Below are positions 53,692-54,144 of a DNA stretch of 64,000 nucleotides, in pieces. The DNA comes from Escherichia phage Sa157lw. The stretch lies in the sequence record OK322699.1. One strand, given 5' to 3'. Numbering within the stretch: the stretch's first letter is position 1; each line of letters begins with the position of its first letter. The notes beneath the pieces were generated by a model. That model did no database searches, was not told the origin of the DNA, and worked only from the letters and a program-made list of their open reading frames with translations. The translations under genes were made by a program, and so were the position numbers.

Positions 53692-53700
53692 CTATTTAGG
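53692..53700 (-). promoter_or_regulatory. late-promoter-like CCTAAATAG motif
   Basis: About 32 nt upstream of ATG 53660. Confidence 0.3.
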
Positions 53701-54144
53701 CTTCTCTGGTCGCCAACCCTGGCTTAAACACCACCATTTCCTCAACGTTATTGGCACTCATAGAGGCTATAGAATCGAACCCTTTGTTGACAAGTTCTTT
53801 CACATTATCATGTATCTTACCAGGCTTTATCCCCAACTCTCGCATTTTATTTTCCCACACCGAAACATTGTTGGAATCTATTACAAGAGTCTTCTTGGCC
53901 TTGACACGAAATGCCATGACAATAGGTTCACCAGATTGACGATAGCGCACGGCATTTTCTGCGTAGATCTGTGCCTTTCCGGATCCCCTGTCAGGTAAAA
54001 CCCAGCACCCATCGTACCAGAGTCAGTCTGGCCAAATTTTTCAAAATCAAATATATCGAATTCAACATTAGACCCATGATACAAAACGATATTCGTAAAA
54101 TCAGGTAGCGTTGATTCGCGATAAAATTCTAGAAAGGTTTTCAT
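53696..54144 (-). pseudogene. PARP-like (H-Y-E) ADP-ribosyltransferase gene split by a -1 frame change
   Basis: ORF 53881-54144 encodes LYHGSNVEF...GAGFYLT; the -1 frame stays open from about 54019 to 53696 and ends ...NNVEEMVVFKP. Confidence 0.45.

Follow-up and report, generated by a model that had tools for sequence, protein, structure and literature searches.

A conserved gene for a small ADP-ribosyltransferase (ART) is split over two reading frames in the genome record of Escherichia phage Sa157lw (OK322699.1), and the break can be traced to the absence of a single A. We have analysed 64,000 nucleotides of this genome, which we call the window; all positions refer to it unless another record is named. 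The gene is best explained as a conserved Ackermannviridae gene which would code for a stand-alone enzyme of 149 amino acids, of the ART-PolyVal/DUF3990 type: a predicted ADP-ribosyltransferase of the H-Y-[EDQ] clade, PARP/diphtheria-toxin-like, as judged from its sequence and from a structural model. The family itself is already known, it is common in phages and orthologues are annotated in related genomes. The missing A is most likely an error in the deposited consensus, with an intact gene in the phage itself. We would give this explanation about an even chance, and sequence alone cannot tell a consensus error from a recent, real null mutation. In either case the break is an ordinary private deletion or a sequencing error: it is not a recoding signal.

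The list of open reading frames, their translation and their alignment all indicate that the minus strand from 54144 to 53696 holds one gene split over two frames. Its parts and its neighbours are shown in Table 1.

Table 1. Position of the interrupted ART gene, its parts and the neighbouring features in the window.
Feature	Position	Strand	Remarks
Upstream gene, ViI gp226 orthologue (92% identity)	54184..55611	-	PLP-dependent decarboxylase, 5-NeOmdU thymidine hypermodification
Whole interrupted ART-PolyVal / DUF3990 gene	53696..54144	-	Start codon 54144-54142, stop 53698-53696; counterpart of Vi01_183, Det7 gp190, ECML-4 gp105 and SeF3a_203
Native N-terminal part, codons 1-56 (M1-E56)	53977..54144	-	H-G-S motif and G-x-G-F-Y-L-T
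Lesion	53976..53978	-	Run of three A's, GGAAAGG, four in every relative (GGAAAAGG)
Out-of-frame tail of the first ORF	53881..53976	-	31 missense codons (RHRSTQKMPCAIVNLVNLLSWHFVSRPRRLL), stop 53883-53881
Native C-terminal part, -1 frame	53696..53977	-	K57-A149 and stop; carries D124 and E136
Downstream gene, acidic protein of 152 aa	53202..53660	-	No assigned function
Terminator-like G+C-rich hairpin, both strands	53179..53199		Closes the PLP / ART / acidic-protein block; consensus scan only

The initial annotation described a PARP-like H-Y-E ADP-ribosyltransferase gene with a one-base frame change. This description stands: the repaired protein matches a Pfam ART family, a model of an orthologue has an ART fold, and H23, Y50 and E136 align with known catalytic residues. 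The ORF of 87 aa at 53881-54144 of the minus strand, which starts with MKTFLEFY and continues through LYHGSNVEF and GAGFYLT, is found as claimed, and so is its poor tail, which is out of frame for 31 codons after E56. The -1 frame, said to be open over the same region down to 53696 with protein-like sequence, has no stop codon between about 54022 and the one at 53696-53698; its last residues are ..NNVEEMVVFKPGLATREA. The direction of the change was also right: one missing base puts the downstream sequence in the -1 frame. The proposed site of the switch was only partly correct. The break, at 53976-53981, falls within the interval suggested (53950-54019), but it lies in a run of A's just past a GGATCC and in neither of the named runs, GGGTTTT and CAGGGGA.

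The break falls at codons 56-57 and leaves a native head of 56 codons, a junk tail of 31 codons and a body of 93 codons in the -1 frame. The codons for H23 (54078-54076) and Y50 (53997-53995) are both in the N-terminal part, while the two conserved acidic residues, D124 (53776-53774) and E136 (53740-53738), lie 3' of the break. A hidden Markov model (HMM) built from 42 diverse members of the family finds its positions 1-57 in the first frame (E 9e-19) and its positions 58-143 in the second (E 4e-19), without gap or overlap between them. Since the two matches abut exactly across frames, the two pieces are a single gene in two frames. With an intact orthologue as query, tblastn finds residues 1-59 in frame -2 and residues 57-149 in frame -1. 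No second copy of the ART gene is present in the 64 kb window.

Translated as recorded, the gene would give 56 native residues, with H23 and Y50 kept, and then 31 junk residues. Without strands 3-6, D124 and E136, such a fragment cannot take up the ART fold. The frameshifted product would have FGQTDSGTMGAGFYLTGDPER as its tryptic end; the intact junction, GDPE-KAQIY, gives the tryptic pair ...GDPEK and AQIYAENAVR.

The locus was compared with that of related phages, as the initial annotation had proposed. It shares 98-99.7% identity with about 150 phages of Salmonella and E. coli which are ViI-like (Kuttervirus, Ackermannviridae). The best matches among these relatives have 652 bases against 651 in the query, which points to a single missing base. 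In SeF3a, Det7, SJ2, ECML-4 and Vi01 the locus is one CDS of 450 nt, which codes for 149 aa. A tblastn search finds the gene in one piece in 222 of 225 phage records, with an ORF of 149-152 aa in the relatives; two independent conserved small genes were not found. Among 18 fetched loci with the whole gene, 17 have an ORF of 149-152 aa, the exception being Salmonella phage 38. The intact protein belongs to a 90% cluster of 39 members, and the 15 members listed are all 149 aa long.

The gene is kept across three genera of Ackermannviridae, and all the Ackermannviridae we have examined carry a small PARP-like ART. It is annotated as an "ADP-ribose transferase" in SeF3a and STP-4, and the UniRef cluster is named "ART-PolyVal-like domain-containing protein". 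The suggestion that an H-Y-E enzyme would be unusual here, made with T4 in mind, does not hold: the window is from a Kuttervirus, and the gene is conserved in three genera and already annotated.

A few records differ from this pattern. In Salmonella phage 38 (KR296692.1; L006:655-1103) the ART gene is split elsewhere in its length, where a run of four T's has become three (GATTTTG to GATTTG), and two CDS are annotated at the locus. In Dickeya phage Kamild (MH807812.1, 135959-136421) tblastn matches the gene in two pieces. The orthologue in Klebsiella phage phi1_146021 (PP889471.1, 123919-124359) is annotated as a "DarB-like antirestriction protein". This label was probably transferred from polyvalent proteins with an ART domain, and it is likely to be misleading for a solo ART of 150 aa.

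The lesion itself may be described very precisely. Over 787 nt round the gene, the sole differences from SeF3a are those of GGATCCAGAAAAGGC to GGATCCGGAAAGGC. One of them is a neighbouring G at 53980, which gives CCG for CCA at Pro55 and is synonymous. By an exact-protein look-up of both neighbouring genes we have found two Logan contigs of an independent read set, SRR36525901. The first (L013, 2076 nt) is 100% identical to window positions 56069-53994. The second (L012, 1041 nt) corresponds to 54008-52969 with GGATCCGGAAAAGGC as its sole difference; its frame is open across the junction and translates as ...AGFYLTGDPEKAQIYAEN... Together, the two contigs agree with the window at all bases from 56069 to 52969 (3.1 kb), apart from having four A's. 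Since L012 combines CCG with four A's, the change from CCA to CCG is a polymorphism of the lineage and silent; what breaks the frame is that a run of four A's has lost one of them. A lesion made of two events (A to G plus the loss of an A) was considered and dropped, as the intermediate with CCG and four A's is found in these contigs. The same intermediate is absent from the phage collection and from IMG/VR.

The overlap between the two contigs is of 15 nt only (53994-54008), and they break 14-33 nt upstream of the run of A's. Low coverage, noisy reads or allele heterogeneity could be the reason for this.

The version with three A's was not found in any of the public collections searched. A 46-mer centred on the junction has no match among 50,697 phage records, 129 of which match an intact 47-mer used as a control. 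The viral, genome and metagenome contig collections have no match to a 26-mer of the junction either, and neither protein fragment is present among 15 billion predicted proteins. Two lineage-specific proteins of the window are likewise missing from the protein and gene collections. On these comparisons the three-A allele is derived and private to this record.

The family and the predicted active site were studied with the repaired protein. It matches the Pfam family ART-PolyVal (PF18760) with 41.9 bits, above the gathering threshold of 31.2, and falls just under the cut-off of DUF3990 (PF13151), with 32.1 against 32.2. It also matches phrog_4700 (6e-95). The same Pfam search gives no match to PARP (PF00644) at E up to 1, and no R-S-E family of ARTs, the class of T4 Alt, ModA and ModB, is found among its matches: the motifs of the protein are H-G-S, G-F-Y and E-M-V. 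A sequence-profile search of the PDB gave no meaningful match. In the published description, the ART-PolyVal family is an H-Y-D family of the Tox-ART-HYD2 clade, related to PARPs and to the diphtheria and cholix toxins, and it is the commonest protein-modifying domain of the polyvalent proteins of phages (Iyer et al. 2017, PMC5512222). When the Ackermannviridae orthologues are turned into a profile, 2047 cluster representatives match it at E up to 0.001. Among these there are solo proteins of about 160 aa as well as giant multidomain proteins which have several copies of the domain, with as many as 10 matched stretches.

An AlphaFold (AF2) model of an orthologue with 95% identity (pLDDT 88, pTM 0.81) has an ART fold, as the initial annotation would lead us to expect: a split beta-sheet flanked by helices, with PARPs and diphtheria toxin as the nearest known folds. 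Over 42 diverse domains of the family, H23 is found in all 42 and G24 is invariant; Y50 is present in 40, D124 in 41 and E136 in 32. The sequences of PARP1 and diphtheria toxin were checked against PDB chains, and the family profile was then aligned to them with hhalign. H23, in the H-G-[ST] motif of strand 1, aligns to H862 of PARP1 and H21 of diphtheria toxin; Y50, in the G-x-G-F-Y motif of strand 2, aligns to Y896 and Y54; E136 aligns to E988 and E148. The probabilities of these alignments are low (3.5% for PARP1 and 37% for diphtheria toxin), but the two give the same picture, which is also that of the fold matches. The placement of H23, Y50 and E136 on the catalytic residues of both enzymes makes the H-Y-E reading reasonable.

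E136 is likely to be the catalytic Glu. It is the Glu of NNVEEMVVF, the residue proposed in the initial annotation, and its alignment to E988 of PARP1 and E148 of diphtheria toxin favours that choice. D124 is better conserved, and the Asp of the published H-Y-D triad may correspond either to it or to position 136; on its conservation D124 is also a candidate for the catalytic acid, although the alignment with PARP1 and diphtheria toxin favours E136. In the relatives with an intact gene, H23 and Y50 would be the residues that bind NAD+, and E136 would serve in the transfer of ADP-ribose. Our search of the literature found no biochemical study of this protein or its orthologues.

The protein may be compared with several known systems. 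It shares with the ART-PolyVal/DUF3990 domains (PMC5512222) the motifs [YF]-H-G-[ST], G-x-G-F-Y-[LF]-T, G-[YH]-D-[GS]-V and E-x-V-x-F. These are the ART domains of polyvalent proteins from phages and conjugative elements; the phage ART is a stand-alone protein of 149 aa. The published triad is H-Y-D; the phage ART has an E at the position of the Glu of PARPs and diphtheria toxin, plus the more conserved D124. In this window its ORF is broken at 53976-53978. The likeness to PARPs and to the C domain of diphtheria toxin is at the level of the fold, not of sequence membership. The phage ART is much smaller, and it lacks both the long loop before the Glu strand and any regulatory or helical domain. 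The cyanophage A4 pre-ejectosome protein (PDB 9k3a chain B) is a multidomain protein of 1071 aa with 13-17% identity to the phage ART. The paper on that pre-ejectosome mentions neither ART nor NAD+.

The ART gene starts 39 nt downstream of the orthologue of ViI gp226, a PLP-dependent decarboxylase which finishes the synthesis of 5-NeOmdU (PMC8989533). The order of the PLP, ART and acidic-protein genes is the same in Taipeivirus and Limestonevirus, which may reflect only the collinearity of the family. Between the stop codon of the PLP gene and the ART start there is an 8-bp hairpin (54150-54170, minus strand; CCCCATAC / GTGTGGGG, with a loop of 5 nt). Its 3' arm holds GGGG, a putative ribosome-binding site for ART, and it is identical in close relatives. 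The orthologue of ViI gp226, a PLP-dependent O-seryl-thymidine decarboxylase, is a 475-aa ORF in the window and in one Logan contig, and it is annotated with 397-424 aa in relatives. The ORF at 54184-55611 resembles that of Vi01 from residue 81 on: either its start codon is uncertain or it has an N-terminal extension specific to the lineage. On the other side of ART, the acidic-protein gene of Vi01 (Vi01_184, L008:2838-3293) has one base missing at each of three short runs, which correspond to window positions 53469, 53515 and 53542. Its frame is back after 73 nt, and 23 residues are garbled (MHRYRARMCPRCRSPCNVLRRRP). These losses look like sequencing errors in the reference record.

The initial annotation had offered three causes for the break: a sequencing indel, a recent pseudogene or a recoding site. 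The first two survive; recoding fails, for lack of an in-phase slippery site, with a single ORF in 222 of 225 records and with an otherwise identical sequence which has four A's.

Several observations favour an error in the consensus. The same genotype, with four A's, is present in the independent read set SRR36525901. Only the length of a homopolymer has changed, with a GATC site three bases upstream of it. In this phage group the DNA contains hypermodified thymidine (PMC8989533), which we would expect to make base-calling worse on some platforms. In addition, other deposited relatives have similar one-base homopolymer losses in this block of genes: four T's to three in phage 38, and three losses in the next gene of Vi01. 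On the other hand, four bases make a short run for a homopolymer miscall, and dispensable phage genes often have real one-base frameshifts. When 87 annotated ECML-4 CDS are compared with the window, 81 of them have a counterpart of full length in a single frame; the others are accounted for by the window edges, a C-terminal variant of the ligase and one divergent gene, and ART is the only gene split between frames. This indicates that the assembly has no general indel problem. An apparent stop in the DNA ligase gene, considered as a sign of a sloppy assembly, proved to be a normal variant with an extra ORF of 74 aa.

The other explanation to be taken seriously, with a chance somewhat short of even, is a genuine recent null allele. 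Replication slippage would have lost one A, only the native fragment of 56 residues would be made, and the phage would be a natural ART knock-out. An assembly free of other frame-split genes agrees with this, and the lack of any other change with respect to the nearest relatives over 787 nt suggests a very recent event. ART is an accessory gene, and the two other split genomes which have been deposited, phage 38 and Dickeya phage Kamild, also favour a real loss. Nevertheless, three A's are not found elsewhere in the collections searched, and an otherwise identical genotype has four. The strict conservation of length and sequence across three genera also argues that the gene is under selection.

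Programmed -1 ribosomal frameshifting, or another form of recoding which would join both frames into the full enzyme, is very unlikely. The -1 frame is open over the junction, both halves are native sequence and the codon after the junction is AGG, which is rare in enterobacteria. Nevertheless, a scan of every heptamer from 54028 to 53887 reveals no X XXY YYZ in the required phase. GGGTTTT is out of phase; a shift at that point would also replace GFYLTGDPE and with it the conserved GFYLT motif. To restore the protein, the -1 shift would have to take place exactly at GAA-AGG, and three A's are too few for transcriptional slippage. A real signal would be conserved, not private: 222 of the 225 relatives and the otherwise identical sequence have one frame. 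It is the lack of an in-phase slippery heptamer, together with the lack of any relative with a two-frame layout, that makes programmed frameshifting so improbable. Finally, two independent small genes placed head to tail by chance may be dismissed: both ORFs appear in the mechanical ORF list and phage 38 annotates two CDS, but the family HMM runs from 1-57 to 58-143 without a gap across the frames, for the second piece neither a start nor a ribosome-binding site of its own is credible, and relatives have one ORF.

Some data weakly suggest that the protein is carried in the virion. In CsCl-purified virions of LIMEstone1, a Limestonevirus, ORF173 (17.33 kDa) and ORF174 (16.62 kDa) were detected as unknown structural proteins, with one peptide each (PMC3296691, Table 2). 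In phiD3, the ART orthologue and the acidic protein next to it have the same two masses to two decimals, which explains why some Kuttervirus records label these proteins as "putative structural protein". The ART peptide strings do not appear in the covered portion of the Sajous1 virion mass-spectrometry table, and the phiD3 proteome paper is uninformative on ART in virions. From the single LIMEstone1 peptide, which comes from another genus, ART would probably be carried by the virion and delivered at infection. T4 Alt is a virion-packaged ART which is injected with the DNA, and the phage ART is likely to follow the same logic of carriage in the particle, with that one LIMEstone1 peptide as the evidence. 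The two proteins belong to different branches of the ART superfamily: Alt is of the R-S-E clade, the phage ART of the H-Y-[EDQ] clade. By analogy one might tentatively suggest that ART travels with the particle and has its targets in the host, on which it would act at entry. Virion delivery and action on host targets at entry have been predicted for ART-PolyVal domains (PMC5512222, PMC9503650).

A few other features of the window should be mentioned. An ORF of 74 aa (11676-11900, plus strand) lies between the genes for DNA ligase and a membrane protein. It is absent from ECML-4, where its last nine codons are fused to the C-terminus of the ligase, and it is also found in phage Marshall (KF669653), in KF669654 and in other contigs. 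An ORF of 206 aa (24914-25534, minus strand), whose ECML-4 counterpart is noted as "similar to Tk.4", has no Pfam match at E up to 0.01. The gene table of Vi01 has a "putative ADP-ribose binding protein" roughly at its position (PMC10892097); should the ORF code for a macro-like protein, this could be a functional partner of ART. ARAGORN finds four tRNA genes at 57598-58720 of the minus strand (Ser-GCT, Ile-GAT, Asn-GTT and Met-CAT); the tRNA-Tyr of the five-tRNA cluster of ECML-4 was not found by this program in the window.

In summary, a one-base break which is private to one record is of little importance by itself and a matter of routine curation: either the record should be corrected or the gene flagged as a pseudogene. 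With a family already known and orthologues already annotated, the gene alone is of little importance as well. The lesion has been narrowed to a single base and an intact twin sequence is known, which makes checking trivial. A small PARP-like ART which may travel in the virion is a reasonable candidate for studies of host takeover or anti-defence. It is possible, although we propose it with some reserve, that the missing A is real, and that Sa157lw is a natural knock-out of a virion-carried H-Y-E ART, with an otherwise identical wild type in SRR36525901. If so, this near-isogenic pair could reveal the role of ART in Ackermannviridae. The protein might be an injected effector of host takeover or anti-defence, or it might act on nucleic acid, given its fixed place beside the gene for the decarboxylase of thymidine hypermodification.
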